Shown one piece after another: positions 2,644-52,357 of a stretch of DNA of 64,000 bases. The first letter of the stretch is position 1, and each line of letters begins with the position of its first letter. A program made the translations under genes and the position numbers. The stretch lies in the NCBI RefSeq assembly GCF_000026545.1, contig NC_011601.1; one strand, written 5' to 3'. Origin of the DNA: Escherichia coli O127:H6 str. E2348/69. GTDB taxonomy: Bacteria; Pseudomonadota; Gammaproteobacteria; Enterobacterales; Enterobacteriaceae. A model generated the notes under the pieces. That model saw only the letters and a program-made list of their open reading frames with translations, was not told the DNA's origin and made no database searches.

Positions 2644-3786
2644 TCAAATCTGCTTTTCATACAATCGGTAACGCTTGTACGGCTCCGCCCCAATGCGTTC
2701 CAGCATGTTATTCATGCCTGTATTGGTTTCGAGGATCCATGACATTTCCAGCGCATCGATCTTCCGACGGGCAAACGGATCGCGTAAGGCTTCAATCAAT
2801 AACAGCGCAATTACCGGGCCGATGCGGCTGAACTGATACTCGTCCCGCACGCCCATCAGCGGTACTCGCGCAGTTCGCACACCGCTGACTTTCAAACGCC
2901 ACAGCAATTTTGCCCAGCCGAAGGGAAAGAGCGATCCGTTCAGATCGGCAATCGCCTCGTTGATGTTCGGCAAGCCGACAATAAACGCGCAGGGTGCAGA
3001 ATCAATCTCAGCGATGTAGATCATATCGTCCGGCACCAGATATTTAAGTTGATCGCCCATGGTCGCGAATTCATGTTCGGTAAACGGCACAAATCCCCAG
3101 TTGTGCTGCCAGCCAGAATTGAAAATCTCACGCAGGATCTGCATCTCTTCGGCAAACCGCTGGCGATTGATGCAGCGAATGGTCACCTTTTTGCGCACCT
3201 GATCCATCAGTTTTTTTAGCGCCGGAGAGAAAGTGAGATCGGTTCGCTGCATCCACCACGCCAGTAAATCAATGCCTTTGTGATAACCCAGTTGTTCAAT
3301 ATGCGCGGCATACCACGGTTTGCCGTGTGGCATCATCGCACAGGGCGGAGTGTCAAAACCTTCAATCAGTAATCCGCTTTCCTGATTGATATTCAGGCTG
3401 AAAGGCCCGCTGATCTTACTTGCACCTTGTGACTTTAACCACGCTTCCGCTGTACCAAACAACGCGGCAAAAACCTGCGGATCATCAATGGCGTCAATCA
3501 TGCCGAAATGACCGGTATCTTCACCGTAACGCTCACGGTGCAAGGTATCTATTTGCGCGGTAATACGCCCAACTATCTGCCCCGCTTTTTTTGCCACCCA
3601 CGCCTGCCAGATGATATGGTCCGTCCCCGGATTCTTCGCAGACAAATGCTCGTTGCGTTCAATGAATAAAGGGGGTATCCAGTTTGGATCGTCGGGATAA
3701 AGTGATGACGGAAAAGCGATAAATGCCTTAAGGTCATTTTTATTAATTACTTTTTCAATTTTAATCATCAGCAGATCGCATTCCAT
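2644..3786 (-). CDS. yghO: YghO, full-length 380-aa form; candidate N-acyltransferase (remembered as a pseudogene in K-12)
   Basis: 380-aa intact ORF beginning MECDLLMIKIEKVINKNDLKAF...; divergent from the adjacent biosynthetic operon. Function inferred from context only; exact start (1st or 2nd Met) uncertain. Confidence 0.75.
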   Translation of the reverse strand: MECDLLMIKIEKVINKNDLKAFIAFPSSLYPDDPNWIPPLFIERNEHLSAKNPGTDHIIWQAWVAKKAGQIVGRITAQIDTLHRERYGEDTGHFGMIDAIDDPQVFAALFGTAEAWLKSQGASKISGPFSLNINQESGLLIEGFDTPPCAMMPHGKPWYAAHIEQLGYHKGIDLLAWWMQRTDLTFSPALKKLMDQVRKKVTIRCINRQRFAEEMQILREIFNSGWQHNWGFVPFTEHEFATMGDQLKYLVPDDMIYIAEIDSAPCAFIVGLPNINEAIADLNGSLFPFGWAKLLWRLKVSGVRTARVPLMGVRDEYQFSRIGPVIALLLIEALRDPFARRKIDALEMSWILETNTGMNNMLERIGAEPYKRYRLYEKQI

Positions 3787-39653: not shown

Positions 39654-40580
39654 ATGAAAATAATACTTCTGTTTTTAGCAGCCCTGGCAAGTTTTACCGT
39701 ACACGCACAGCCCCCCTCACAGACCGTAGAACAAACAGTCCGGCATATTTATCAGAACTATAAATCAGATGCCACTGCCCCTTATTTTGGTGAAACCGGA
39801 GAGCGAGCGATAACTTCTGCGCGTATTCAACAGGCGCTTACCCTGAACGACAATCTTACGCTGCCGGGCAATATTGGCTGGCTGGATTATGATCCGGTTT
39901 GTGATTGTCAGGATTTTGGCGATCTGGTGTTAGAAAGCGTAGCGATAACCCAAACTGACGCCAATCATGCCGATGCCGTTGTGCACTTTCGTATCTTTAA
40001 AGACGATAAAGAAAAGACCTCGCAGACACTGAAAATGGTGGCGGAAAATGGTCGTTGGGTCATTGACGATATTGTCAGCAATCATGGCAGCGTCTTACAA
40101 GCGGTTAATAGCGAGAATGAAAAAACACTGGCCGCTATAGCTTCGTTGCAAAAAGAACAGCCGGAAGCCTTTGTTGCCGAACTCTTTGAACATATTGCTG
40201 ATTATAGCTGGCCGTGGACGTGGGTGGTTTCCGACTCTTACCGCCAGGCGGTCAATGCCTTCTATAAAACCACCTTCAAGACGGCCAACAATCCCGATGA
40301 AGATATGCAAATAGAACGGCAATTTATTTACGACAATCCGATCTGTTTTGGCGAAGAGTCGTTATTTTCACGCGTTGATGAAATTCGAGTCCTGGAGAAA
40401 ACCACCGATTCCGCCCGCATTCATGTTCGTTTTACGCTGACCAATGGCAACAACGAAGAGCAAGAACTGATTTTACAACGGCGCGAAGGTAAGTGGGAAA
40501 TCGCTGATTTTATCCACCCGAACAGCGGCAGCCTACTTAAACAGATTGAGGCAAAAACCGCCGCCAGATTAAAACAATGA
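39654..40580 (+). CDS. yqhG: Periplasmic protein YqhG (DUF3828)
   Basis: 308-aa ORF with signal peptide (MKIILLFLAALASFTVHA). Confidence 0.85.
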   Translation: MKIILLFLAALASFTVHAQPPSQTVEQTVRHIYQNYKSDATAPYFGETGERAITSARIQQALTLNDNLTLPGNIGWLDYDPVCDCQDFGDLVLESVAITQTDANHADAVVHFRIFKDDKEKTSQTLKMVAENGRWVIDDIVSNHGSVLQAVNSENEKTLAAIASLQKEQPEAFVAELFEHIADYSWPWTWVVSDSYRQAVNAFYKTTFKTANNPDEDMQIERQFIYDNPICFGEESLFSRVDEIRVLEKTTDSARIHVRFTLTNGNNEEQELILQRREGKWEIADFIHPNSGSLLKQIEAKTAARLKQ

Positions 40581-40630
40581 GCTGAATTAAATAACAATTA
40601 GCCGGAACAATAAATAAAAGGGAACACTAT

Positions 40631-40888
40631 ATGAAAACAATTTTCACCGTGGGAGCTGTTGTTCTGGCAACCTGCTTGCTCAGTGGCTGCGTCAATGAGC
40701 AAAAGGTCAATCAGCTGGCGAGCAATGTGCAAACATTAAATGCCAAAATCGCCCGGCTTGAGCAGGATATGAAAGCATTACGCCCACAAATCTATGCTGC
40801 CAAATCCGAAGCTAACAGAGCCAATACGCGTCTTGATGCACAGGACTATTTCGACTGCCTGCGCTGCTTGCGTATGTACGCAGAATGA
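40631..40888 (+). CDS. yqhH: Small lipoprotein YqhH (Lpp-like)
   Basis: 85-aa ORF with lipoprotein signal and lipobox (LLSGC) followed by a coiled-coil-like region. Confidence 0.85.
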
Positions 40889-40889
40889 T

Positions 40890-40931
40890 AAAAAAATCCC
40901 CGGCAGCATTCTGTTACCGGGGATATTTTTT
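40890..40931. terminator. Bidirectional intrinsic terminator (yqhH / ygiQ)
   Basis: Hairpin TCCCCGG-(13 nt)-CCGGGGA flanked by an A-run and a T-run between convergent genes. Confidence 0.7.
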
Positions 40932-43149
40932 AACGTCCACCCGCCGCTTTAGGGCGTTTCTTCGCACCAGCATTCTGCAGGCGAGATTGCGTAGACGACG
41001 CTTTTTTTGCCGTAGCAGGTGTCTGACGCTGGGTCGCCATCGGCGTATGTTTAGTCAACGCCGGACGGGTATTGCGGTTCTGGCGGCGAGCCTCACGCAT
41101 CTCTTCAATGGTTGGCGCAGGCACTAAGCAATCGCGACGGCTGCCAATCAGATGCTTTTTACCCATTGCTTCCAGCGCCTGGCGGATTAACGGCCAGTTT
41201 GCCGGATCGTGGTAACGCAACAACGCTTTATGCAAACGACGCTGTTTGTCGCCCTTCGGCACGAAGACGTCTTCACTCTTATAACCAATTTTCGCCAGCG
41301 GGTTTTTGCCGGTGTAATACATGGTGGTCGAGTTAGCCAGCGGCGACGGATAGAAGTTCTGCACCTGGTCGAGGCGGAAGCGATGCTTTTTCAGCCATAG
41401 CGCCAGATTCACCATATCTTCATCACGCGTACCCGGGTGCGCGGAGATGAAATACGGGATCAGATACTGTTCTTTACCTGCCTGTTTCGAGTAAGTATCG
41501 AACAGCTCTTTAAAGCGGTCATAGCTGCCCATGCCCGGCTTCATCATCTTCGATAACGGCCCTTCTTCGGTATGTTCCGGGGCAATCTTCAGATAACCGC
41601 CGACGTGATGGGTCGCCAGCTCTTTGATATAGCGCGGATCTTCTACGGCGATGTCATAACGCACACCAGAGGCAATCAGGATCTTTTTAATGCCTTTCAG
41701 ATCGCGCGCACGGCGATAGAGGTTGATCGTCGGTTCGTGGTTAGTGTCCATATGCGGACAAATATCCGGATAAACGCACGACAAACGACGGCAGGTTTGC
41801 TCAGCGCGTGGCGATTTGCAACGCAACATATACATGTTGGCAGTAGGCCCACCGAGATCGGAAATCACGCCCGTAAAACCTGGAACAGTGTCGCGGATCG
41901 CTTCGATCTCATTAATAATCGAATCTTCGGAACGGCTCTGAATAATGCGCCCTTCGTGCTCGGTAATAGAACAGAAAGAGCAGCCGCCAAAGCAGCCACG
42001 CATAATGTTGACCGAGAAACGAATCATTTCGTAAGCCGGAATTCGGGCATTACCGTAAGCCGGATGCAGCACGCGCTTGTACGGCAGCGCAAAGACGCTA
42101 TCCATCTCTTCGGTAGAAAGCGGAATAGCAGGCGGGTTGATCCATACATAGCGGTCGCCATGTTTTTGCATCAATGCGCGGGCGCAGCCTGGGTTAGTTT
42201 CGTGGTGCAGAATGCGCGAAGCATGGGCGTACAGCACTTTATCGCCCTTCACTTTCTCGAAAGAAGGCAGCAACACGTAGGTTTTTTCCCACGGTTTCGG
42301 GCGTGGTGGCTGCACGGTTACAGCTTTGGCTTCCTGCTTTTTCGGAGCTACCGGTTTGTTATCCGCGCACGGCAAATCTTCGCCATACGGATGCGGGATT
42401 GGGTCGATTTTCCCTGGGGTATCAAGACGGGTGGAATCCACACCGCTCCAGCCAGGCAACGCCTCTTTTACGATAATCGCGGTATTACGCACATCGCGGA
42501 TTTCACTAATCGGCTCGCCCATCGCCAGACGGTGCGCCACTTCCACCAGCGGACGCTCGCCATTGCCAAACATCAACATGTCGGCTTTAGAATCCACCAG
42601 CACGGAACGGCGCACGGTATCGGACCAGTAATCATAATGCGCGGTACGCCGCAGGCTGGCTTCGATACCGCCGAGGATCACCGGCACATCTTTCCACGCC
42701 TCTTTACAACGCTGGGTATAAACCAGTGTTGCACGATCCGGGCGCTTACCCGCGACGTTATTCGGCGTGTAAGCGTCATCATGGCGCAAACGGCGATCGG
42801 CTGTGTAACGGTTGATCATCGAGTCCATGTTGCCAGCAGTAACGCCGAAAAACAGATTCGGTTTACCCAGACGCATAAAGTCGTCTTTGCTGCTCCAGTC
42901 TGGCTGGGCGATGATCCCAACGCGAAAGCCCTGCGCTTCCAGCATACGACCACAAATCGCCATCCCGAAGCTTGGGTGATCGACATACGCGTCGCCAGTA
43001 ACCAAAATGATGTCGCAGCTATCCCAGCCAAGTTGATCCATCTCTTCACGTGACATCGGCAAAAACGGTGCCGGTCCAAAACAGGCGGCCCAGTACTGCG
43101 GCCAGGAGAACAGGTCGCGATCCGGTTGGATCAGGGAGATAGAGCTCAT
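40930..43149 (-). CDS. ygiQ: Radical SAM superfamily protein YgiQ (UPF0313)
   Basis: 739-aa ORF; contains the radical-SAM cysteine cluster (CFGGCSFC) and a lysine/arginine-rich C-terminal tail. Confidence 0.9.
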
Positions 43150-43400
43150 TTTGCTTCCAGAAATGGTAAAAAAATAATCAAAGGCCGGGGATTATACGCT
43201 GTATCACGCGCGGAAATGAAGTGATGTTGATGAACGGTGGCGAAATACCCTGGTGAGGTTTTTCACTGCCCGACTTGGGCAAGCACATTTAAGGCTGGCG
43301 GTATCGTGGCAACTGCCGCTACTATTTATGCCGATCAGCAACGTTCAAATCATATTGCACGACGATCGGCTATCCGAGGACACCCACAGTAAGGCAAGGT

Positions 43401-44150
43401 ATGGAACAGGTTATTACAAAGCGCCGCTATTACGATATTGGTCTACAGATTGAAGAGCTGCTGTATTCAGGCGTATTTAAGGCCGGAGAACGCTTACCTT
43501 CAGAACGTGAACTGAGCGAGCGGTTTAATACCAGCCGAACTACCATTCGTGAAGCCATCATTATGCTGGAACTGAAAGGCGTATTGAATGTGAAGCAAGG
43601 GTCAGGGATTTTCTTTGTCGACTCCACCGATAAGCTCAACCAGAAATCATTAATGCCCTATTCAGAAATTGGCCCGTTTGAACTGTTACAGGCACGTCAG
43701 GTAATTGAGAGCAATATTACCGGTTTTGCTGCCAGCCAGATCAGCTTTAACGAGTTACAAGAGTTGAAGAAAATCATTGGATTACAGGAAAAAGCCATCG
43801 CTGCGGAAAGTGATAAATTTGAAGACCTGGATCACCGATTTCATAGCATTATTGCCGAAGCGACGCAAAATCGGGTACTCATCAAACAAGCCGCTGAATT
43901 ATGGCGGGCAGTGCGCACAGAAAACCCCCGCTGGAAGAAACTTAACTACAAGTACCTGCATGAAAAGCATTTGCGTCTGCAATGGCTGGAAGATCACCGG
44001 GCTATTTTCTTGGCTCTGCAACAGAAAGATTCAGAGCTCGCCAGGGAAGCGTCCTGGAGACATCTGGAAAACAGCAAAAATGAACTGATCAAAATCTTCA
44101 AACAAGACGCTTCCATCAGCGATTTTGATGACTTTTTCTTCGCTCGTTAA
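43401..44150 (+). CDS. GntR/FadR-family transcriptional regulator (accessory island)
   Basis: 249-aa ORF with N-terminal GntR-type winged HTH (GERLPSERELSERFNTSRTTIREAI) and FadR-like C-terminal domain; not part of the K-12 ygiQ–ftsP interval as I remember it. Confidence 0.8.
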   Translation: MEQVITKRRYYDIGLQIEELLYSGVFKAGERLPSERELSERFNTSRTTIREAIIMLELKGVLNVKQGSGIFFVDSTDKLNQKSLMPYSEIGPFELLQARQVIESNITGFAASQISFNELQELKKIIGLQEKAIAAESDKFEDLDHRFHSIIAEATQNRVLIKQAAELWRAVRTENPRWKKLNYKYLHEKHLRLQWLEDHRAIFLALQQKDSELAREASWRHLENSKNELIKIFKQDASISDFDDFFFAR

Positions 44151-44472
44151 CCTTCATTAGTCCAGAGCTGGCGGAAAAAATAACGCCGGCTCTGCCTTCC
44201 GCCCTCCACTGGTACACGCTCTCTTTTTAATTGGTCTAATAAATCAACTATCATCAGATATCTTAGATTAGCGGCAATTATCCTAAAAACTGACCTCTAA
44301 AAAACTTTCCTTTCATTTTATTCATATAACTCATTGATACAGATATAAATAACGCCTTGTTGTTCTGTTTCGTACTTTTACCTTTCTCTGCAAGCGTGAT
44401 GCATCCCTCTGTTTTTGGTCTAGTGAATTATGTAAATTGGTATACACACAAGCCACCAGGAGTAAGAGCATA

Positions 44473-45945
44473 ATGTCAGGGAACGAAAGTATCGATGCCG
44501 CCCACTATGATCAGGTAACCACCTGGCCTCGGGGCGGGTTACAGGCAGATATTGTCCATATTGGTTTTGGCGCTTTTCATCGCGGACACCAGGCTGTCTA
44601 CACGGATCTCACTAATCAACTTTCGGACACCCGCTGGGGGATCTTTGAGATTAACCTGTTTGGTGATGCTCAACTGATCGAAAACTTAAATGCGCAAAAT
44701 GGGCTGTTTTCGGTTGTGGAAACATCTGCATCGCAATCTACCTCACGCCTTGTGCGTTCGGTGGCTGGCGGTATTCATACCCCCAGAGATGGCATTGCCG
44801 CAGCAATCCATAAACTGGCTGAACCTCAGGTAAAAATCGTTTCATTAACTATCACCGAGAAAGGCTATTGTCTCGATCCGCAAACGCGATCGCTTGATCT
44901 CACCAATGGATTAATCAACCACGATCTACAAAATCCGGATGCGCCTCAGTCGGCTATTGGCGTGATCGTCTGTGCTTTGCAACAACGTAAAGCGGCAGGA
45001 CTCGCCGCTTTTAGTGTGCTCTCCTGCGACAACTTGCCAGACAATGGGCATCTGACGCGAAATGCCGTTCTCGGTTTTGCCCGACAACTGGACCAGCCCC
45101 TGGCTCAGTGGATCGAAGAAAATGTCTCATTTCCAGGCACGATGGTAGATCGCATTGTTCCGGCAATGACTGAATCGCAATTCGCCTTACTGGAAACGAA
45201 AACCGGTTATGCCGATCCCTGCGGGATCGTCTGCGAATCATTTCGTCAGTGGGTGATCGAAGATAATTTTGTGCGCGGACGACCGGAATGGGATAAAGCC
45301 GGCGCGATGTTTGTCAGCAATGTTCAGCCTTATGAAGAGATGAAGTTACGCATGTTAAATGGTAGCCATTCATTTCTGGCTTATAACGGCTCACTGGCTG
45401 GCTATGAATTTATCTGGCAATGCATGGAAGACGCTGATTTTCGTTCCATTACCCGCCAACTGATGATTAATGAACAAGCCCGAACACTTAATCCAGACTT
45501 AAATATCGACGCCCAGGAATACGCCGACCTGTTAATTGAACGCTTTAGCAACCGTAATGTTGCACACCGTACCGGGCAAATCGCTATGGACGGTTCGCAA
45601 AAGCTTCCCCAGCGAGCGCTGACGCCCTGGCTGAAATTGCATCAGCAAAAACAAAACAATGCTGTTCTGTCACTGCTCGTTGCTGGTTGGTTGCATTATG
45701 TCATTGATGCTGTTGAGAAAAGCCAGTCTGTCGCTGATCCAATGAATGACCAACTTCAGGCGCTAATAAAGGAACAACAAGACGCATGGCAACAGGCGCT
45801 CGCATTACTGCACCTTAGCGCCATATTTGGTGATTTAAGCAACCATCAGCCATTTATAAATGAAATAAAAATCGCCTTTGCAAATATAAAAAACAAAGGC
45901 ATCAAGGCCACCATCAGCCAATTATTATCGGATGAGCAGAAATGA
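44473..45945 (+). CDS. Long-chain mannitol dehydrogenase-family oxidoreductase (mannonate/fructuronate reductase-like)
   Basis: Start at ATG 44473 with GGAG ribosome-binding site; N-terminal HIGFGAFHRGHQA dinucleotide-binding motif typical of the mannitol dehydrogenase family. Confidence 0.8.
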   Translation: MSGNESIDAAHYDQVTTWPRGGLQADIVHIGFGAFHRGHQAVYTDLTNQLSDTRWGIFEINLFGDAQLIENLNAQNGLFSVVETSASQSTSRLVRSVAGGIHTPRDGIAAAIHKLAEPQVKIVSLTITEKGYCLDPQTRSLDLTNGLINHDLQNPDAPQSAIGVIVCALQQRKAAGLAAFSVLSCDNLPDNGHLTRNAVLGFARQLDQPLAQWIEENVSFPGTMVDRIVPAMTESQFALLETKTGYADPCGIVCESFRQWVIEDNFVRGRPEWDKAGAMFVSNVQPYEEMKLRMLNGSHSFLAYNGSLAGYEFIWQCMEDADFRSITRQLMINEQARTLNPDLNIDAQEYADLLIERFSNRNVAHRTGQIAMDGSQKLPQRALTPWLKLHQQKQNNAVLSLLVAGWLHYVIDAVEKSQSVADPMNDQLQALIKEQQDAWQQALALLHLSAIFGDLSNHQPFINEIKIAFANIKNKGIKATISQLLSDEQK

Positions 45946-46958
45946 AAACATTAATTTGTCAGCAGCCTGGCGTTATGGAATATGTGGAAAAGGATATTCC
46001 CACACCAGCAGATAATGAAGTGCTGTTAAAAATCAAAGCTGTGGGTATTTGTGGTACGGATATTCACGCTTTTGCCGGCAGACAGCCTTTTTTTAGCTAC
46101 CCACGTGTATTAGGTCATGAAATATGCGCCGAAGCGGTTTCGCTAGGCAGCCAGTGCCAAACAGCACAGCCAGGCCAGCGCTATTCCGTCATCCCATGCA
46201 TTCCGTGTGGCGAGTGCGCAGCCTGTCGGGAAGAGAAAACGAATTGCTGCGAACGTGTTTCGCTGTATGGCGTGCATCAGGATGGAGGTTTTAGTGAGTA
46301 CCTTGCGGTACGTAAAGACAACCTGGTGCCGCTCCCTGACGAGGTAAGCGACAGCGCCGGAGCATTGGTTGAATGTTTCGCCATTGGTGCACATGCCGTT
46401 CGTCGGGCTGAGATCAAGGCTGAACAAAACGTACTGGTGATTGGCGCCGGGCCAATAGGTCTGGCTACCGCAGCCATCGCCAGGGCTAAAGGGGCGCATG
46501 TTGTTGTTGCTGATATTGATTGTCAACGTCGCCAGCACGTTGTGGGTAATCTGGATATTAATGCCTTCGATCCCACACAGAAAGATTTTATTGCCGCGCT
46601 TCGTGAGGCTTTTGGAGGCGAACTGGCTTGCGTAGTACTGGATGCGACGGGAAATAAAGCTTCAATGAGTCAGGATGTAAATCTTATTCGTCATGGCGGC
46701 AAAATTGTTTTCATCGGTTTATACATTGGTGAACTTGTTATTGACGATCCGACCTTCCATAAAAAAGAGACAACGTTACTCAGCAGTCGCAATGCCACAC
46801 GGGAAGATTTTGCGTTGGTGATTGAACTGATGCGCAGCAATAAAATTCACGAAAATTTAATGAAAAACCAGGCGTTCGATTTCTTTAGTGTTGGCGAAGA
46901 TTACCAGCGTAACGTTGTAGAAAATAAAAATATGGTCAAGGGTGTGATCACTTTTTAA
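45942..46958 (+). CDS. Zinc-dependent medium-chain alcohol/polyol dehydrogenase (sugar-acid 5-dehydrogenase-like)
   Basis: 338-aa ORF with GHE catalytic zinc motif, a structural-zinc Cys cluster (CGECAACREEKTNCC) and Rossmann motif VIGAGPIGL. Confidence 0.8.
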   Translation: MKTLICQQPGVMEYVEKDIPTPADNEVLLKIKAVGICGTDIHAFAGRQPFFSYPRVLGHEICAEAVSLGSQCQTAQPGQRYSVIPCIPCGECAACREEKTNCCERVSLYGVHQDGGFSEYLAVRKDNLVPLPDEVSDSAGALVECFAIGAHAVRRAEIKAEQNVLVIGAGPIGLATAAIARAKGAHVVVADIDCQRRQHVVGNLDINAFDPTQKDFIAALREAFGGELACVVLDATGNKASMSQDVNLIRHGGKIVFIGLYIGELVIDDPTFHKKETTLLSSRNATREDFALVIELMRSNKIHENLMKNQAFDFFSVGEDYQRNVVENKNMVKGVITF

Positions 46959-46968
46959 GGGAACAAAT

Positions 46969-47979
46969 ATGACAACTGTTTATGTCAGTGAAGAAAATTT
47001 AAAATCACTGGTGCACCACAAATTACATACCGCCGGGCTGGATACCGACACCACACAACAGGTGACAGATGTTTTAGTACATGCCGATATTACCGGTGTG
47101 CATTCACATGGTGTTATGTGTGTCGAACATTATTGCACCCGCCTTGCTGCCGGAGGGTTAAATAAAGCCCCGCAGTTTAGCATTGAGCAAATTTCACCGT
47201 CAGTGGCCATTCTCGACTCTGACGACGGAATGGGGCATTCCGCATTAATTACCGCCACTGAGCACGCTATTAAACTGGCCCAGCAAGAGGGTCTCGGTTT
47301 TGTTAGCGTTAAAAACACGTCTCACTGTGGTGCGTTATCTTATTTTGCAGAGATGATCACCAACAAAGGGTTGGTTGCTATCGTAATGACGCAAACCGAT
47401 ACCTGTGTGGCTCCCCATGGCGGCGCCGAGCGCTTTTTGGGAACTAACCCCATCGCCTTTGGTTTCCCGGTGGAAAACAGCCATCCGATGATTGTTGATA
47501 TGGCGACCAGTGCCACGGCTTTCGGCAAAATACTTCATGCAAAGGAAACCGGAAAACATATTGGTGAAGGGCTGGCGATAGATAAAAACGGTTATGGCAC
47601 CACTGATCCGTATAAGATTGAAAACCTGCTACCTTTCGGCCAACACAAAGGTTCAGGCATTGCACTGGCTATTGATGCACTGACTGGCGTGCTGATGAAT
47701 GCGAATTTTGGCAACCATATTGTTCGCATGTATGGTGATTATGACAAGATGCGTAAGCTGGCAAGTTTGGTTATTGCCATCGATCCGAAAAAGCTCGGCA
47801 ATCCTGTTTTTGCAAAAACTATGGCGAAAATGGTCACGGAGCTGCATGCCGTTAAACCGGCTCCTGGTGTCGAAAAAGTGTTAGCGCCGAACGATCCGCA
47901 AATGCACTACAAAGAAAAATGCCAACAGGAAGGTATTCCGGTTCCGGCAGGAATATTCCATTATCTGGCAGAGAATTAA
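46969..47979 (+). CDS. Ldh2-family (malate/L-lactate dehydrogenase-type) oxidoreductase, YiaK-like
   Basis: 336-aa ORF; family assignment from overall resemblance to Ldh2/YiaK-type 2-keto-acid reductases (motifs HGVMCVEHY, SHCGALSYFAEM). Confidence 0.65.
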   Translation: MTTVYVSEENLKSLVHHKLHTAGLDTDTTQQVTDVLVHADITGVHSHGVMCVEHYCTRLAAGGLNKAPQFSIEQISPSVAILDSDDGMGHSALITATEHAIKLAQQEGLGFVSVKNTSHCGALSYFAEMITNKGLVAIVMTQTDTCVAPHGGAERFLGTNPIAFGFPVENSHPMIVDMATSATAFGKILHAKETGKHIGEGLAIDKNGYGTTDPYKIENLLPFGQHKGSGIALAIDALTGVLMNANFGNHIVRMYGDYDKMRKLASLVIAIDPKKLGNPVFAKTMAKMVTELHAVKPAPGVEKVLAPNDPQMHYKEKCQQEGIPVPAGIFHYLAEN

Positions 47980-48051
47980 TCACTATTTTTTATTATAACG
48001 ATAGAAAAGCGCTGTATTTATCGTTTCTGTTATATTAACCAGGAGCAGGAT

Positions 48052-49035
48052 ATGAAAGCACTTCGTCCTCTGACGGCATCGCTTATGCTGTTAACCAGTT
48101 GTTTATTAATATCTAATACCACACTGGCAAAAACAACATTAAAACTGAGTCATAATCAGGATAAAAGCCATGCTGTCCATAAAGCATTAAGCTATTTAGC
48201 GGATAAAACCAAAGAGTATTCTAATAGTGAATTAGTTATTCGCATTTACCCAAATGCGACATTAGGTAATGAGCGTGAATCACTGGAATTAATGAACTCC
48301 GGTGCATTACAGATGGTTAAGGTTAATGCCGCATCACTAGAATCATTTGCTCCGGATTACAGCCTTTTCAGTCTGCCGTTCTTATTCCGCGACCGTGATC
48401 ACTATTATCGTGTTCTGCAAAGTGATTTAGGTAAAAAAATACTTAATTCATCAGAAAGCAAAGGTTTTGTTGGTATTACGTACTATGACGGCGGTGCGAG
48501 AAGTTTTTATTCCAATAAACCGATTACAAAACCTGAAGATTTAGCGGGAATGAAAATCAGGGTTCAACAAAGCCCCAGCGCCATTGCAATGATGAAAGCA
48601 CTCGGTGGTGTCGCTACCCCGATGGCGCAAGGCGAACTCTACACCGCACTTCAGCAAGGAGTGGTTGATGGCGGAGAGAACAATACCGTTGTCTATGCCG
48701 ATATGCGTCACGCCGAAGTCGCAAAAGTCTATTCACGTGATGAACACACCATGGTGCCTGATGTGTTAATTATCAGCACCGACGTGTTGAATAAACTTGG
48801 TGATAAAGAGCGCACGGCATTATTAAAAGCAGCCGATGAGTCAATGATGCAGATGAAGGACGTCATTTGGCCTGCGGCTGAAAAAGAAGCCTACGACAAA
48901 ATGAAAGGGATGAACGCAACAGTTGTTGATGTTGATAAATCCGCTTTCAAAGAACGCGTCAAACCGTTATACGATGAATTCAAGGCGAAAGATGCACAAT
49001 CAGCCAAAAACCTTGAGCTAGTAGAAAGTATGTAA
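48052..49035 (+). CDS. TRAP transporter substrate-binding protein (DctP family)
   Basis: 327-aa ORF with signal peptide, followed by small and large TRAP permease genes. Confidence 0.8.
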   Translation: MKALRPLTASLMLLTSCLLISNTTLAKTTLKLSHNQDKSHAVHKALSYLADKTKEYSNSELVIRIYPNATLGNERESLELMNSGALQMVKVNAASLESFAPDYSLFSLPFLFRDRDHYYRVLQSDLGKKILNSSESKGFVGITYYDGGARSFYSNKPITKPEDLAGMKIRVQQSPSAIAMMKALGGVATPMAQGELYTALQQGVVDGGENNTVVYADMRHAEVAKVYSRDEHTMVPDVLIISTDVLNKLGDKERTALLKAADESMMQMKDVIWPAAEKEAYDKMKGMNATVVDVDKSAFKERVKPLYDEFKAKDAQSAKNLELVESM

Positions 49036-49076
49036 CCCTAATGGGCAGGTAATTCCTGCCTTTTCATGGAAGACTT

Positions 49077-49559
49077 ATGCGAACACTCACTCATATTCTT
49101 AATAAGATCCTTGCCGGATGTTGCTGCATTATTCTCGCCATTATGGTGTTCTGCGTAACCTGGCAAGTTATTGCACGTTTTATTTTTAACGCTCCCAGCA
49201 CTGTGCTTGATGAGTTCACCCAGATTTTATTTATGTGGATGATTTTGCTTGGCGGTGTATATACTGCGGGTTTAAAAAAACATCTGGCCATTGATTTGTT
49301 GGCTCAAAAACTTCCTGCTGCATCTGTTCTGACGCTTGACAGTTTTATCCAAATTATCATTACGGTCTTTGCGGTTATTTTCATGATCTATGGCGGGAAT
49401 ATTGTTGTTGAAAAAGCACAACATGTTGGACAAATCTCTCCAGTATTAAAATGGCCAATGGATAAAGTATATTGGGTTATGCCTGTCAGTGGGCTTATTC
49501 TGGTCTGGTATTCAGTAATGAATATTATTGACAACTATCGTAAACGGAATTTTCATTAA
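49077..49559 (+). CDS. TRAP transporter small permease (DctQ family)
   Basis: 160-aa, 4-TM-type hydrophobic ORF between the binding-protein and large-permease genes. Confidence 0.8.
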   Translation: MRTLTHILNKILAGCCCIILAIMVFCVTWQVIARFIFNAPSTVLDEFTQILFMWMILLGGVYTAGLKKHLAIDLLAQKLPAASVLTLDSFIQIIITVFAVIFMIYGGNIVVEKAQHVGQISPVLKWPMDKVYWVMPVSGLILVWYSVMNIIDNYRKRNFH

Positions 49560-49569
49560 CGAGGGAAAT

Positions 49570-50874
49570 ATGGAATTTGAATATATCTACCCCGTCTTAA
49601 TTTTATTTGGCAGTTTTGCCGTCATGCTGGCAATAGGTGTGCCAATTACTTTTGCGATTGGTCTTTCTTCGCTGTTATCTATTATTACTGCCTTGCCACC
49701 CGACGCTGCCATTTCTGTTATTTCACAAAAAATGACTGTAGGGCTGGATGGCTTTACGCTATTAGCCATTCCCTTCTTCGTGTTAGCCGGAAACATTATG
49801 AATACCGGTGGTATAGCCAGACGACTGGTTAACCTGGCGCAAGCATTAGTTGGGCGTCTTCCTGGCTCACTGGCTCATTGTAATATCCTCGCGAATACAC
49901 TGTTTGGTGCGATTTCAGGTTCAGCCGTTGCGTCAGCCGCAGCGGTAGGTGGGATTATGTCACCACTGCAAGAAAAAGAGGGATATGATCCGGCGTTTTC
50001 AGCAGCGGTTAATATTGCCTCTGCCCCCATTGGCCTGATGATCCCACCGAGCAATGTGTTGATTGTTTATTCCCTCGCCAGTGGCGGGACTTCTGTCGCT
50101 GCGTTGTTCTTAGCTGGATATCTGCCGGGCATCCTCACCGCTGTTGCCTTAATGTTTGTAGCTGCACTTTATGCACGACGTCACCATTACCCAGTGGCCG
50201 AACGCATCAATTACCGTCAGTTTTTACAGGTATTCCGCGAATCAATTCCTAGCCTGATGCTTATTTTTATCATTATTGGCGGTATTATCGCAGGGGTATT
50301 TACGCCCACAGAAGCATCAGCAATAGCGGTAATTTATAGTTTAGCCCTGGCGATGATTTACCGGGAACTCACTCTTAAGAAACTCAATGATATTCTGTTA
50401 GATTCGGTAGTAACCAGTTCAATTGTTCTGTTACTGGTAGGCTGTTCAATGGGAATGTCATGGGCCATGACGAATGCTGATGTTCCTGAGTTGATCAACG
50501 AACTGATTACCCGCGTTTCGGATAACAAATGGGTCATTCTGTTTATTATCAATATCATTCTGTTGATCGTCGGTACCTTTATGGATATCACGCCGGCGAT
50601 CCTGATATTTACACCTATTTTCCTGCCGATCGCCCAGCATCTGGGGATTGATCCGATTCACTTCGGCATCATTATGGTTTTCAACTTAACCATTGGCCTT
50701 TGCACACCACCTGTCGGCACCATTCTGTTTGTGGGGTGCAGCATTGGTAAGGTCAGTATCGACAGGGCAATAAAACCATTACTGCCGATGTTTCTGGCAT
50801 TGTTTGTAGTAATGGCAATTATTTGTTATTTCCCGCAGCTTAGTCTGATGTTGCCAGGATTATTTTCGACCTGA
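49570..50874 (+). CDS. TRAP transporter large permease (DctM family)
   Basis: Start placed at MEFEYIYPVLILFG... with GAGGG ribosome-binding site; about 434-aa polytopic membrane protein. Confidence 0.8.
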   Translation: MEFEYIYPVLILFGSFAVMLAIGVPITFAIGLSSLLSIITALPPDAAISVISQKMTVGLDGFTLLAIPFFVLAGNIMNTGGIARRLVNLAQALVGRLPGSLAHCNILANTLFGAISGSAVASAAAVGGIMSPLQEKEGYDPAFSAAVNIASAPIGLMIPPSNVLIVYSLASGGTSVAALFLAGYLPGILTAVALMFVAALYARRHHYPVAERINYRQFLQVFRESIPSLMLIFIIIGGIIAGVFTPTEASAIAVIYSLALAMIYRELTLKKLNDILLDSVVTSSIVLLLVGCSMGMSWAMTNADVPELINELITRVSDNKWVILFIINIILLIVGTFMDITPAILIFTPIFLPIAQHLGIDPIHFGIIMVFNLTIGLCTPPVGTILFVGCSIGKVSIDRAIKPLLPMFLALFVVMAIICYFPQLSLMLPGLFST

Positions 50875-50944
50875 TACACAATGAAGACTGCATACTGAGT
50901 AATTTTCAATGCCCCACCACTCTGTGGGGCATTGAATTGGTCCA

Positions 50945-52357
50945 TTACGGTACCGGATTGACCAACAGTTGCCCAATCGAGCCACGGTCCGCCATTTCCA
51001 GCGTCTGACTGTTGAAGTAGAACGGGAAGTGCGCCCAGGAAGGCTGACCGAAATAAACAAGCAGCTCCACTTGTCCGTCAACCCAAACGGTATCTTTCCA
51101 GCCTCTGTCTTCCGGGAACGGCATCGCGCCATTCACGTTACGGATCTGGAACATCACGCCTTCAATATGGAACGCTTGCGGCTCGTCCGCGCGCACCGTC
51201 CAGCGTTCCCACGTTCCTTGCTGCGCAGTAACATCAATACGGTTGACGTCCCACAACTGCCCATTAATCCCCGGGTCATCACCCAGACTGATATCACGAC
51301 TTCGAATCGGCGAACCGGCCATGATTTCAGTTGGCAGCAAGCGCATCGGAAGACTGTCAGTGACCAGCGGCAGAAGGCCGGTTGGGCGCAGCGTTAGCAC
51401 CAGAGTAGAAACCAGAATGCTGGATGGCTCAAAGAAGCCACGAATACGATCAACAATGCTCGCCGCTTCGCCACAGGTAATCGACACTTCATCACCGTTG
51501 CTCATATCCACCAGAATCTCACGACGCTCGCCCGGTGCCAGCGAAAGTTGCTTCACCGATACAGGAGCGGGCAGGAATCCCTGATCGCCAGAAATCACAT
51601 GTAACGGGCGACCATCGCTCATCTGTAGTTGATAGCGACGAGAGTTCGACGCGTTCAACAGACGCAAGCGCACCCAGCCACGCGAGACTTCAACGTACGG
51701 GCTTTGTACACCGTTAACCAGCAGCGTATCACCAACAAAGCCGCCGTTTCCCGGTTCGTTGTATTCTGGCGTACCAAAGTTATCCAGCCGTTTATCCTGA
51801 ATAATGACCGGAAAATCATCCACACCATAATGGTTGGGGATAGGCAGCGATTTACTGACTTCATCTTCCACCAGCCACATTCCGGCAAGGCCGTTATAGA
51901 CCTGCTGAGCCGTGCGGTTGGGAGTATTGGCGTGATACCACAGAGTAGCTGCGTTCTGGCGAATGGGCAGTACGGGTGCCCAGTCAGCGTTTGGCGACAT
52001 CATCCGTGCCGGACCGCCCATCAGCGGGCCAGGTACCTGTAGCCCGGCCACCGTCATTGAGACATTTTCTGTCAGGCGGTTGCTGTAAATAAGCTTAACA
52101 TCGTCGCCCTTCCAGACGCGGATAGTCGGCCCCAGGTAACGACCATTGATTCCCCAAACCGACGCGCGTGTCCCTGGCGTAAATGACCAGTGCGCACGTT
52201 GTACAGTCATAAACAGCGGTTGCCCACGGCGAGATTCAAGCAGCGGCGGAACGGGTAGCGGTTGCTGTTGCCCGGCTGCGCTGGCCTTCAGGGGAACAGC
52301 GCCTGCACAAAGTGCAATCCCCGATGCCTGAATGAACTGACGCCGACTGAGTGACAT
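50945..52357 (-). CDS. ftsP: Cell division protein FtsP (SufI), multicopper-oxidase-like Tat substrate
   Basis: 470-aa ORF with Tat signal MSLSRRQFIQASGIALCAGA... Confidence 0.95.
   Translation of the reverse strand: MSLSRRQFIQASGIALCAGAVPLKASAAGQQQPLPVPPLLESRRGQPLFMTVQRAHWSFTPGTRASVWGINGRYLGPTIRVWKGDDVKLIYSNRLTENVSMTVAGLQVPGPLMGGPARMMSPNADWAPVLPIRQNAATLWYHANTPNRTAQQVYNGLAGMWLVEDEVSKSLPIPNHYGVDDFPVIIQDKRLDNFGTPEYNEPGNGGFVGDTLLVNGVQSPYVEVSRGWVRLRLLNASNSRRYQLQMSDGRPLHVISGDQGFLPAPVSVKQLSLAPGERREILVDMSNGDEVSITCGEAASIVDRIRGFFEPSSILVSTLVLTLRPTGLLPLVTDSLPMRLLPTEIMAGSPIRSRDISLGDDPGINGQLWDVNRIDVTAQQGTWERWTVRADEPQAFHIEGVMFQIRNVNGAMPFPEDRGWKDTVWVDGQVELLVYFGQPSWAHFPFYFNSQTLEMADRGSIGQLLVNPVP

Follow-up and report, generated by a model that had tools for sequence, protein, structure and literature searches.

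A probably old accessory operon between ygiQ and ftsP in Escherichia coli that may join a glucuronate-type TRAP importer to a sugar-acid dehydrogenase module

Escherichia coli E2348/69 carries, between ygiQ and ftsP, seven co-directional genes that we interpret, with somewhat better than even confidence, as an old, non-mobile chromosomal accessory operon in which a glucuronate-type TRAP importer is combined with a sugar-acid module of one regulator and three dehydrogenases. The window (the whole 64-kb stretch of DNA that was analysed) is 100% identical to this strain, and the ORF list and RefSeq annotation give the same seven plus-strand genes (Table 1); for the mannitol-dehydrogenase-family gene and dctM, RefSeq uses the ATG starts at 44473 and 49570 (the ORF list also has 44437 and 49528). 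As the initial annotation had proposed, the genes are absent from K-12: ygiQ and ftsP are neighbours in MG1655, separated by a 110-bp spacer of which 58 bp are exchanged for the accessory segment in the alignment (identity lost at ~43197 and regained at ~50944). Comparative genomics across E. coli, which that annotation had suggested as a check, found the cluster (at least 80% of it present) in 1,201 of 5,426 complete genomes (approximately a fifth; 22%) and an intact K-12-type junction, that is, an empty site, in 4,199.

Table 1 Features of the accessory segment in E. coli E2348/69 (window coordinates)
Feature	Position	Strand	Details or basis
Accessory segment relative to K-12	43198..50943	.	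7746 bp in place of 58 bp
FadR-subfamily GntR regulator (GntR HTH + FCD), 249 aa	43401..44150	+	Pfam, NCBIfam
Isolated TGGTCTA half-site, candidate operator element	44232..44238	+	Regulator-to-dehydrogenase spacer; inferred by inspection
Paired operator-like motif TTTGGTCTAGTGAATTATGTAAATTGGTATACAC	44414..44447	+	Two TTGGT sites, starts 22 bp apart
Mannitol-dehydrogenase-family oxidoreductase, 490 aa	44473..45945	+	NCBIfam, PDB, K-12 identities
Zn-dependent medium-chain dehydrogenase, 338 aa	45942..46958	+	K-12 LgoD/RspB identities, PDB, motifs
Ldh2-family (malate/L-lactate dehydrogenase type 2) oxidoreductase, 336 aa	46969..47979	+	NCBIfam, PDB
DctP-family TRAP solute-binding protein, 327 aa, signal peptide	48052..49035	+	TIGR00787, STM3169 ortholog
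DctQ, small TRAP membrane subunit, 160 aa	49077..49559	+	Pfam PF04290, 6.5e-27
DctM, large TRAP membrane subunit, 434 aa	49570..50874	+	TIGR00786, 515 bits (cut-off 268)
GC-rich hairpin AATGCCCCAC...GTGGGGCATT	50908..50933	.	Between convergent dctM and ftsP stops; sequence

Pfam and NCBIfam matches and the RefSeq annotation agree with the families originally assigned (GntR/FCD regulator, mannitol dehydrogenase, Zn-dehydrogenase, Ldh2 and DctPQM), and the gene content agrees with a TRAP importer, three dehydrogenases and an FCD regulator in one cluster. Judged by sequence, dctPQM is the ortholog of the Salmonella STM3169–3171 importer: the binding protein (215 bits against TIGR00787; cut-off, 175) is 83% identical to Salmonella P0133, which is encoded at the same ygiQ–ftsP locus and is STM3169 according to a match to the published primers and residue numbering, and DctQ and DctM are 70% and 88% identical to their Salmonella orthologs. 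STM3169 binds D-glucuronate with a Kd of 0.17–0.25 µM (PMC7660916), and all seven ligand residues reported for it (N35, Q36, E74, R150, R170, N210 and D237) are kept in E2348/69, in place of the L-gulonate- or 2,3-diketo-L-gulonate-type binder initially suggested. By analogy with the experiments on this ortholog, dctPQM most likely imports D-glucuronate at sub-micromolar affinity, and perhaps close analogues too. The Salmonella study covered just five hexose derivatives (PMC7660916), so there may be other or better ligands than D-glucuronate. The protein falls in a uronate-binding clade to which other TRAP binders are only distantly related; its next-nearest relatives are 52–57% identical, and, among their loci, the two Vibrio and Serratia ones with a detailed annotation are canonical eda-kdgK-uxaC-uxuB/uxuR-uxuA clusters.

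The other unit comprises the FCD-type regulator and three NAD(P)-dependent dehydrogenases. The mannitol-dehydrogenase-family enzyme (50% identity to YdfI, its top PDB match (4im7), and 49% to UxuB; 508 bits against NCBIfam fructuronate reductase, below the cut-off of 603) is a fructuronate reductase paralog and is predicted to act as a keto-sugar-acid reductase. The Zn-dehydrogenase, whose gene overlaps the upstream one by 4 bp, is 56% identical to K-12 LgoD and 31% to RspB (top PDB match, 4ilk), carries GHE and Cys-rich zinc sequence motifs and a GAGPIG nucleotide-binding loop, and is a paralog of the L-galactonate 5-dehydrogenase LgoD, with a predicted role as a C5 dehydrogenase of L-configured sugar acids. 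The Ldh2 enzyme, first described as YiaK-like, is nearer to AllD, its top PDB match, than to YiaK and is below both cut-offs (AllD, 337 bits (cut-off, 356); YiaK, 122 bits (cut-off, 316); sulfolactate dehydrogenase, 233 bits). A redox route into the mannonate/KDG pathway, as envisaged in the initial annotation, is, with the LgoD and YdfI/UxuB identities above, the most reasonable reading. The Zn-dehydrogenase would oxidize a sugar acid with an L-galactonate/L-gulonate-type C4/C5 configuration at its C5 hydroxyl, the mannitol-dehydrogenase-family enzyme would re-reduce the C5 ketone to the D configuration, and the product (D-mannonate, D-altronate or 2-keto-3-deoxy-D-gluconate) would enter the core UxuA/UxaA–KdgK–Eda route encoded elsewhere; the Ldh2 enzyme would perform a keto/hydroxy step at the carbon adjoining the carboxylate. 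Several points weigh against this scheme. Glucuronate itself does not readily suit an LgoD-like C5 dehydrogenase: a reductase would first have to convert it to L-gulonate, an activity known for no Ldh2 enzyme. Nor do three two-electron steps add up to a simple L-to-D inversion, whose net change is zero, and this leaves no evident role for the Ldh2 enzyme. E. coli already has ExuT, UxaC, UxuAB and LgoD, which counts against a clear advantage of the operon, and for the mannitol-dehydrogenase-family enzyme, the Ldh2 enzyme and the regulator the score against the nearest named family falls short of the curated cut-off in each case.

The regulator would act as a repressor through the paired TTGGT operators 5′ of the first dehydrogenase gene, relieved by a sugar-acid effector. 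It matches Pfam GntR (1.4e-19) and FCD (9.2e-22), and its NCBIfam scores for UxuR (193 bits; cut-off, 442) and ExuR (185 bits; cut-off, 396) mark it as a UxuR/ExuR-like protein but not an equivalog; it is 38% identical to K-12 UxuR and 78–79% identical to the trio-adjoining regulators of Salmonella and K. quasipneumoniae. The 27-nt pattern searched for (TTTGGT-N16-ATTGG) ends at 44440, 32 bp ahead of the start codon of the first dehydrogenase gene, and has a single match in the 64 kb (0.04 expected). Against such regulation, the regulator-to-dehydrogenase spacer yielded no consensus promoter, and in the E. coli operator-like palindromes the second half-sites are degenerate. The paired motif also lies 5′ of the trio in Salmonella, K. 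quasipneumoniae, K. spallanzanii, E. albertii and E. whittamii, and the Salmonella stm3169 promoter carries it as well, which makes it a candidate operator linking the Salmonella TRAP promoter with the dehydrogenase module. The TRAP and dehydrogenase units occupy separate loci in Salmonella but form a single cluster in Escherichia and K. spallanzanii; this fusion and the common operator-like motif argue for coupling of transporter and enzymes.

The regulator and trio form a conserved module, found with 62–79% identity and unchanged gene order in Salmonella, K. quasipneumoniae, V. agarivorans and A. gilvus; Ldh2 orthologs (70–78%; Salmonella, Klebsiella, Vibrio, Agarivorans and Marinomonas) lie in every case 3′ of the same two dehydrogenases. 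Its neighbours in Vibrio, Agarivorans and Klebsiella are an orthologous 3,6-anhydro-L-galactonate cycloisomerase (684–828 bits against PDB 5XD7), a PfkB kinase (KDG kinase) and an Eda (KDPG) aldolase, the kinase and aldolase being in a divergent operon in V. agarivorans and A. gilvus. The occurrence of the module beside this cycloisomerase had escaped the initial annotation. The Salmonella trio adjoins a cycloisomerase pseudogene and, as at two other loci, has a DUF386 (YiaL-family) gene 3′ of Ldh2; KdgT, KduI, KduD and a DUF386 anomerase-like protein are neighbours in other taxa or loci. A Rhodobacteraceae locus has the Zn-dehydrogenase and Ldh2 genes without the mannitol-dehydrogenase gene and with a cycloisomerase nearby, and at one metagenomic locus the trio adjoins a complete uxaC-uxuB-uxuA set. 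Flavobacterial AHG clusters contain a Zn-dehydrogenase and a KduD-like reductase, the former just 26% identical and therefore analogous, not orthologous. Neither a cycloisomerase nor a remnant of one was found in Escherichia.

These neighbourhoods would fit a trio that serves as the gamma-proteobacterial route from 2-keto-3-deoxy-L-galactonate (L-KDGal, the cycloisomerase product) through 2,5-diketo-3-deoxygluconate to KDG, with the cycloisomerase lost from E. coli and the TRAP system directly importing a keto-deoxy sugar acid or its relative 5-keto-4-deoxy-glucuronate. The cycloisomerases and the pseudogene, the Rhodobacteraceae locus, the divergent kinase and aldolase, the KdgT, KduI, KduD and DUF386 neighbours and the flavobacterial arrangement are consistent with it, as is the C4/C5 configuration that, by our own derivation, L-KDGal shares with L-galactonate; a 2024 review describes the bacterial fate of L-KDGal as unresolved (PMC11219438). 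We nevertheless judge this route unlikely here: Ldh2 would be surplus, because conversion of L-KDGal to KDG takes just two redox steps, Escherichia has no trace of the cycloisomerase, the E. coli binding protein keeps all glucuronate-contact residues, and the flavobacterial counterpart is analogous. Also doubtful is that the trio stands in for UxaC, with Ldh2 (or an unrecognised activity of the other two) reducing imported D-glucuronate to L-gulonate, the Zn-dehydrogenase converting this to D-fructuronate and the mannitol-dehydrogenase-family enzyme forming D-mannonate for UxuA. Glucuronate binding by the Salmonella ortholog, the single cluster and the operator motif common to both units in Salmonella favour this, and by our own stoichiometry the conversion of a uronate to a D-hexonate (three two-electron steps, net one reduction) is an exact match; the trio is also kept by purifying selection in enterics whose cycloisomerase has been lost, and the title of Kuivanen & Richard 2014 (cited in PMC12928451) indicates that L-gulonate is a substrate of LgoD-type enzymes. 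However, the trio beside the complete uxaC-uxuB-uxuA set therefore does not replace UxaC at that locus, and the route would be redundant in E. coli because UxaC is kept. To our knowledge, moreover, all characterised Ldh2-family enzymes act at the carbon adjoining the carboxylate, never on the distal aldehyde. A substrate along the lines originally proposed (an acid of the L-gulonate, L-idonate, 2-keto-L-gulonate or 2,3-diketo-L-gulonate type) would have its 2-keto group reduced by Ldh2 in YiaK fashion, with the Zn-dehydrogenase as an L-idonate/L-gulonate 5-dehydrogenase and the mannitol-dehydrogenase-family enzyme turning the 5-keto product into D-gluconate or D-mannonate. Such chemistry fits the families (Ldh2 on an alpha-keto acid, the Zn-dehydrogenase at C5, net one reduction), the layout resembles yiaK-yiaMNO, and the DUF386 genes belong to the YiaL family, yet we consider it very improbable given the uronate-binding clade of the binding protein, the low scores of Ldh2 on the YiaK model and of the Zn-dehydrogenase on the IdnD model (130 bits; cut-off, 469), and a cluster without a yiaK–S type kinase or decarboxylase.

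The AT-richness reported in the initial annotation is borne out, whereas the horizontal acquisition drawn from it is not the best reading. GC content is 0.452 in the cluster and 0.514 in the remaining window (dctP, 0.421; dctQ, 0.383; ygiQ, 0.543; ftsP, 0.560), and GC3 is 37–49% in the cluster compared with 58–62% in flanking core genes (dctP/dctQ, 0.37–0.39; ygiQ/ftsP, 0.58–0.60). This composition, the patchy distribution and the fact that carriers with names are B2 or ExPEC strains would suit a recent, horizontally acquired island confined to pathogenic (B2) E. coli. We regard such an island as improbable, as the same site is occupied by the cluster in E. albertii, E. whittamii and Klebsiella spallanzanii and by its TRAP part in Salmonella, and cluster dS relative to E. 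albertii and E. whittamii (0.17–0.63) overlaps that of the flanks (0.28–0.53). Mobility signatures are also absent: the RefSeq annotation of the locus contains no integrase, transposase or tRNA, no flanking repeats or Rfam match were found in 42900–51200, and no insertion sequence or direct repeats were found at the cluster. The cluster is under purifying selection (dN/dS of 0.02–0.18 relative to the same two species; 0.13–0.18 for the mannitol-dehydrogenase gene). Loss from most E. coli, the simpler account, fits the patchy pattern better than recent import; the operon would thus be old at ygiQ–ftsP in Escherichia and would have been lost by about three quarters of E. coli, including K-12. 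The hairpin 3′ of dctM, which differs from the K-12 ftsP terminator and is missing from the output of a consensus terminator scan because its T-run is weak, is likely to be a terminator shared by dctM and ftsP.

The locus consists of seven co-directional accessory genes between ygiQ and ftsP, as the initial annotation had described, and RefSeq annotates all seven at these positions in E. coli E2348/69, to which the DNA is identical in sequence. Given the gaps of −4 to 72 bp within the six structural genes and the 322-bp spacer that follows the regulator gene, the layout fits a regulator gene plus a six-gene operon. A promoter and terminator consensus scan of both spacers yielded nothing convincing, with counts at or below the shuffle expectation. 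A mechanical ORF list also contained a 493-aa antisense ORF within ygiQ (window 41572–43053, + strand); as RefSeq annotates no gene there, this is most likely an artefact of reading frames in a GC-rich gene. One E. coli database entry (P0116, 544 aa) joins DctM and Ldh2 domains in a single protein; it probably reflects a mis-assembly, or else a rearrangement of the cluster in one strain.

Genes of the cluster and its flanks (positions in the window) and the sources supporting each assignment
Feature	Position	Strand	Support
FCD/GntR regulator	43401–44150	+	NCBIfam, Pfam; RefSeq agrees
mannitol-dehydrogenase-family enzyme	44473–45945	+	NCBIfam; RefSeq agrees
Zn-dependent dehydrogenase	45942–46958	+	NCBIfam; RefSeq agrees
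Ldh2-family enzyme	46969–47979	+	NCBIfam; RefSeq agrees
dctP	48052–49035	+	NCBIfam; RefSeq agrees
dctQ	49077–49559	+	Pfam; RefSeq agrees
dctM	49570–50874	+	NCBIfam; RefSeq agrees
ygiQ (flank)	40930–43149	−	
ftsP (flank)	50945–52357	−	

DctPQM-type TRAP transporters combine a periplasmic binding protein with a small 4-TM and a large 12-TM subunit, and the complete gene trio is present (48052–50874; gaps of 41 bp and 10 bp), with scores of 215 bits on TIGR00787 (cut-off 175), 515 on TIGR00786 (cut-off 268) and 6.5e-27 on PF04290. In TRAP binding proteins, a conserved arginine pairs with the ligand carboxylate. Arg170, and also Arg150, is invariant in our binding-protein alignment (A1), and the role of both residues in a TRAP binding protein has been described (PMC7660916). 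The E. coli binding protein is 83% identical over 327 aa to a Salmonella protein (P0133) whose gene also lies between ygiQ and ftsP, there with dctQ and dctM as its only companions. P0133 was identified as STM3169 from termini that agree with the published deletion primers and from a residue numbering that agrees with Herman et al. A peptide-pattern scan of contigs, which picked up no Salmonella copy, had suggested that STM3169 was unrelated; the protein-database search overturned this. STM3169 binds D-glucuronate (Kd 0.17–0.25 µM) and showed no response to D-galacturonate or D-gluconate (PMC7660916), and all seven of its contact residues (Asn35, Gln36, Glu74, Arg150, Arg170, Asn210 and Asp237) occur at the same positions in the E. 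coli protein. The same study (Herman 2020, PMC7660916) is the source for the ligands of the PDB neighbours 4N91, 4MHF and 4N15. The next-closest binding proteins (52–57% identity) come from Vibrio, Serratia, Cedecea and Marinomonas, and the two loci annotated in detail, from Vibrio thalassae and from Serratia sp. DD3, have the classic make-up of a glucuronate cluster (eda, kdgK, uxaC, uxuB, a GUS-like GH2, uxuR and uxuA). Orthology to STM3169, the conserved contact residues and the glucuronate-cluster context of these relatives together argue strongly that the E. coli transporter would take up D-glucuronate, with the qualification that the Salmonella ligand panel was small.

STM3169–STM3171, the Salmonella transporter (Haneda 2010, PMC3022708; Herman 2020, PMC7660916), thus resembles the E. 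coli system in its ygiQ–ftsP/sufI site, in its subunits (DctP 83%, DctQ 70% and DctM 88% identical) and in its upstream motif, and differs in that the transporter stands alone at this site, the regulator and the three dehydrogenase genes being located elsewhere, between speA and speB. In Salmonella, ppGpp and SsrB control the transporter gene, which has a part in survival within macrophages. An accessory locus common among enteropathogenic and extraintestinal E. coli is tied, by its transporter half, to a Salmonella factor with a measured ligand and a virulence phenotype, which makes high-affinity glucuronate scavenging in the host a testable trait. The cluster as a whole is a known accessory operon, whose transporter half can now be annotated with fair confidence. 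A second accessory E. coli TRAP system (L083, NZ_CP025869.1 230364–248515, outside the window) has a binding protein 56% identical to that of the cluster and lies beside rplI with genes for a TetR regulator, a 3-ketoacyl-ACP reductase, an enoyl-CoA hydratase, a CoA-transferase and an FAD oxidoreductase. A functional link to this paralog was rejected given its unrelated CoA-transferase/enoyl-CoA hydratase surroundings. About 1370 genomes gave a weak DNA match, and the sampled matches are annotated as a TRAP binding-protein gene.

In MG1655, a spacer of 110 bp is all that lies between ygiQ and ftsP, confirming that the cluster is absent from the K-12 gene order. Aligned with K-12, the extra DNA runs from about 43198 to about 50943, so that 7746 bp stand in place of 58 bp of the spacer, including the K-12 ftsP terminator; E2348/69 has a hairpin at 50908–50933 instead. 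This hairpin (AATGCCCCAC...GTGGGGCATT) is wholly different from that at about 3200–3235 of the K-12 locus L002 (ATACTCGCCC...GGGCGAGTAT), so that the indel exchanges the 3′ end signal of an essential-region gene as well. Comparison across E. coli, which the initial annotation had proposed, showed the cluster in 1201/5426 complete genomes and the uninterrupted K-12 junction in 4199/5426. The segment appears as 'GR 21, ygiQ..ftsP' in an ExPEC genome comparison from 2026, which has it as common to B2 model strains and classes it among uncharacterised sugar-metabolism regions (PMC12928451); the association of the cluster with B2 is based on named carrier strains only.

The cluster has a GC content of 0.452, compared with 0.514 in its surroundings, and the GC calculation bore out the suspected AT-richness of the transporter genes (dctQ, 0.383) relative to the flanks (ygiQ and ftsP, 0.543–0.560). 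Immediately upstream of ygiQ, the core genes yqhG and yqhH (window 39654–40888) also fall below ygiQ and ftsP (0.465–0.484), so that in this region a low GC content is by itself poor evidence of foreign origin. No integrase, transposase, tRNA or att-site insertion is annotated at the cluster, a repeat search detected short chance-level repeats only, with no direct repeats flanking the segment, and an Rfam scan of 42900–51200 returned no RNA family match at E ≤ 0.1. The hallmarks of a mobile island are thus missing, and the junction is a clean replacement of the 58 bp. The whole cluster occupies the same site in E. albertii, E. whittamii and Klebsiella spallanzanii, as does the TRAP part in Salmonella. 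Relative to E. albertii and E. whittamii, the dS values of cluster genes (0.17–0.63) overlap those of the flanks (0.28–0.53), and dN/dS of the cluster genes is 0.02–0.18. Given the lack of mobility marks, the shared site in relatives, the flank-like dS and the low dN/dS, we take the cluster to have long resided at this site, maintained by purifying selection and since deleted from most E. coli lineages. A recent import into B2 seems unlikely, and the horizontal acquisition first proposed is the poorer explanation of these data.

The mannitol-dehydrogenase-family and Ldh2-family enzymes and the regulator all fall short of the curated cut-offs of their nearest named families. Among K-12 proteins, the Zn-dependent dehydrogenase shares 56% identity with LgoD, the L-galactonate 5-dehydrogenase, and 31% with RspB; no curated LgoD model was among the best 25 of 33 matches. 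The mannitol-dehydrogenase-family enzyme is 50% identical to YdfI, its best match in both PDB and K-12, and 49% to UxuB; it scores 508 bits on the fructuronate reductase model NF011611, below the cut-off of 603, compared with 762 bits for a Vibrio uxuB from a canonical cluster. The Ldh2-family enzyme is nearest to AllD, below both cut-offs (337 bits against 356 and 315 against 496), and its neighbours are sugar-acid genes, with no all (allantoin) genes. The regulator shares the GntR plus FCD domain architecture of UxuR and ExuR and scores far below both models (193 bits against 442 and 185 against 396, respectively). The Ldh2-family enzyme had been called YiaK-like, which is contradicted by its 122 bits on the YiaK model (cut-off 316). 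The observation is thus confirmed and the original interpretation holds in part: the accessory, AT-rich cluster absent from K-12 stands, its YiaK-like reductase does not, and a horizontal origin is not favoured.

Several known systems resemble parts of the cluster. The K-12 lgoR–lgoD–lgoT locus follows the same plan, with a C5 dehydrogenase that supplies the hexuronate pathway alongside a transporter and a regulator, and LgoD is the closest K-12 paralog of the Zn-dehydrogenase (56%); however, LgoT is an MFS transporter rather than a TRAP system, LgoR is a different regulator, and lgo has neither a mannitol-dehydrogenase-family nor an Ldh2 partner. The rspAB–ydfI genes, reportedly described by Wichelecki and colleagues in 2014 as a cryptic L-gulonate route of E. 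coli CFT073, likewise pair a Zn-dehydrogenase with a mannitol-dehydrogenase-family fructuronate reductase, but RspB is only 31% identical to the cluster enzyme, and the system includes a dehydratase of the enolase superfamily (RspA) and lacks TRAP and Ldh2 genes. In yiaK–yiaL–yiaMNO of K-12 (2,3-diketo-L-gulonate reductase and TRAP), an Ldh2-family gene also adjoins a sugar-acid TRAP system, although the proteins are distant (DctM, 289 bits on YiaN against a cut-off of 800; DctQ, 1e-7 on YiaM) and the downstream genes differ from those of the E. coli cluster. The regulator is, like UxuR and ExuR, a FadR-subfamily GntR protein with these two as its best named matches, but shares only 38% identity with UxuR and stays well under the curated cut-offs of the two. 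Within the hexuronate operon of Bacillus subtilis, Ldh2-family and Zn-dehydrogenase genes are paired as yjmC–yjmD, whose function is, to our knowledge, also uncharacterised. One source calls an Ldh2 ortholog 'YjmC'.

Agar degraders break down 3,6-anhydro-L-galactose (AHG) with dedicated gene clusters (Vibrio sp. EJY3 VejACI, PDB 5XD7; pathway of P. atlantica, Lee et al. 2014), in which orthologs of all three dehydrogenases stand beside a cycloisomerase, a KDG kinase and a KDPG aldolase; those of V. agarivorans are 60–76% identical to the E. coli enzymes, and its regulator 66%. Ldh2 orthologs (70–78% identity) were found in Salmonella, Klebsiella, Enterobacter and many agar- or alginate-degrading marine bacteria, and the three genes kept the same order in nearly every context examined, the exceptions being a Rhodobacteraceae locus without the mannitol-dehydrogenase gene and one metagenomic contig with another order. 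An orthologous regulator comes with the trio in Salmonella and K. quasipneumoniae; in V. agarivorans it is encoded about 9 kb from it. The dehydrogenase trio is thus a conserved module. The divergent neighbour of the module in V. agarivorans, A. gilvus and K. quasipneumoniae is a 3,6-anhydro-L-galactonate cycloisomerase ortholog (684–828 bits to 5XD7), accompanied by a KDG kinase and a KDPG aldolase in V. agarivorans and A. gilvus; two more distant loci have KdgT, KduI, KduD and a DUF386 anomerase-like gene near trio genes. In contrast to the AHG clusters, the E. coli cluster has no cycloisomerase, AHG dehydrogenase, kinase, aldolase or agarases, and carries a uronate-type TRAP transporter instead. 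Neither the window nor the other Escherichia and K. spallanzanii loci yielded a cycloisomerase in tblastn searches with two orthologs as queries; the best window match (E 0.027) fell at an unrelated position. The cycloisomerase and AHG dehydrogenase that mark an AHG catabolic cluster are missing from the E. coli locus.

A degraded cycloisomerase gene lies between the FCD regulator and the trio in the speA–speB region of Salmonella enterica (L084, 6348–6938), with frameshifts and the loss of roughly residues 137–266; a DUF386 gene and an alpha/beta hydrolase gene follow the trio there. The Agarivorans gilvus ortholog (L089, 4477–5567) is called as two overlapping ORFs of 259 and 107 aa, which suggests a frameshift or a sequencing error. 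Flavobacterial agar clusters contain an analogous pair, a Zn-dehydrogenase and a KduD-like reductase; the Zn-dehydrogenase of Cellulophaga lytica was rejected as an ortholog at only 26% identity. ABG41067/8 are the assayed P. atlantica 2-keto-3-deoxy-L-galactonate (L-KDGal) 5-dehydrogenase and reductase; the cycloisomerase search returned no P. atlantica match. The genomic partners of this widely conserved module point to the bacterial fate of L-KDGal from red-algal agar, called unresolved by a 2024 review (PMC11219438).

By our own derivation, L-gulonate, L-galactonate, L-idonate and L-KDGal have a common C4/C5 configuration, and oxidation at C5 followed by re-reduction would convert them to D-mannonate, D-altronate, D-gluconate and KDG, respectively. 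The natural pair for such an inversion would be the LgoD-like dehydrogenase and the UxuB-like reductase. Members of the Ldh2 family act next to the carboxylate, and three two-electron steps do not fit a simple epimerisation; they suit a substrate that is more oxidised than the product by one level, for example a uronate or 2-keto-L-hexonate. Given this mismatch, three substrate-specific alternatives for the trio were retained beside the LgoD/UxuB-like redox conversion. The most ambitious reading, which we hold to be rather unlikely, is a three-step redox pathway including a reaction new to the Ldh2 family, converting L-KDGal to KDG or D-glucuronate via L-gulonate without an isomerase, and forming with the STM3169-type TRAP transporter an enteric regulon that serves as a B2 host-adaptation trait. 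If true, its L-KDGal version would supply the missing bacterial route from L-KDGal to KDG. Basic concepts would be unchanged; a pathway variant would be added, and thousands of genes that now bear family names only could be annotated.

Transporter and module are fused in Escherichia and K. spallanzanii, and they also share a candidate operator motif. The motif TTTGGT-N16-ATTGG has one match in the 64-kb window (0.04 expected), ending 32 bp before the start codon of the first dehydrogenase gene. Across 94 loci, matches preceded the first dehydrogenase gene in the five cluster copies of Escherichia and K. spallanzanii, the trio of Salmonella and that of K. quasipneumoniae, and Salmonella stm3169; one further match is probably due to chance. 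This recurrence upstream of both the trio and stm3169 suggests that transporter and trio may form one regulon, which in Salmonella would be small and undescribed. The candidate half-sites are of the TTGGT type, AAATTGGTATAC resembles the UxuR/ExuR box, and core UxuR or ExuR could bind these sites as well. In E. whittamii, the spacer between regulator and dehydrogenase genes holds a second copy of the motif (L005, 6096–6122) besides the conserved one. In the 487-bp spacer between ygiQ and stm3169 of Salmonella (L088, 9514–10000), a second ATTGGT pair (GAAATTGGTCTTATGAGTATCTTCAAATTGGTATGC) lies upstream of the E. coli-type pair, and four candidate operator half-sites therefore precede stm3169, a gene reportedly controlled by ppGpp and SsrB.
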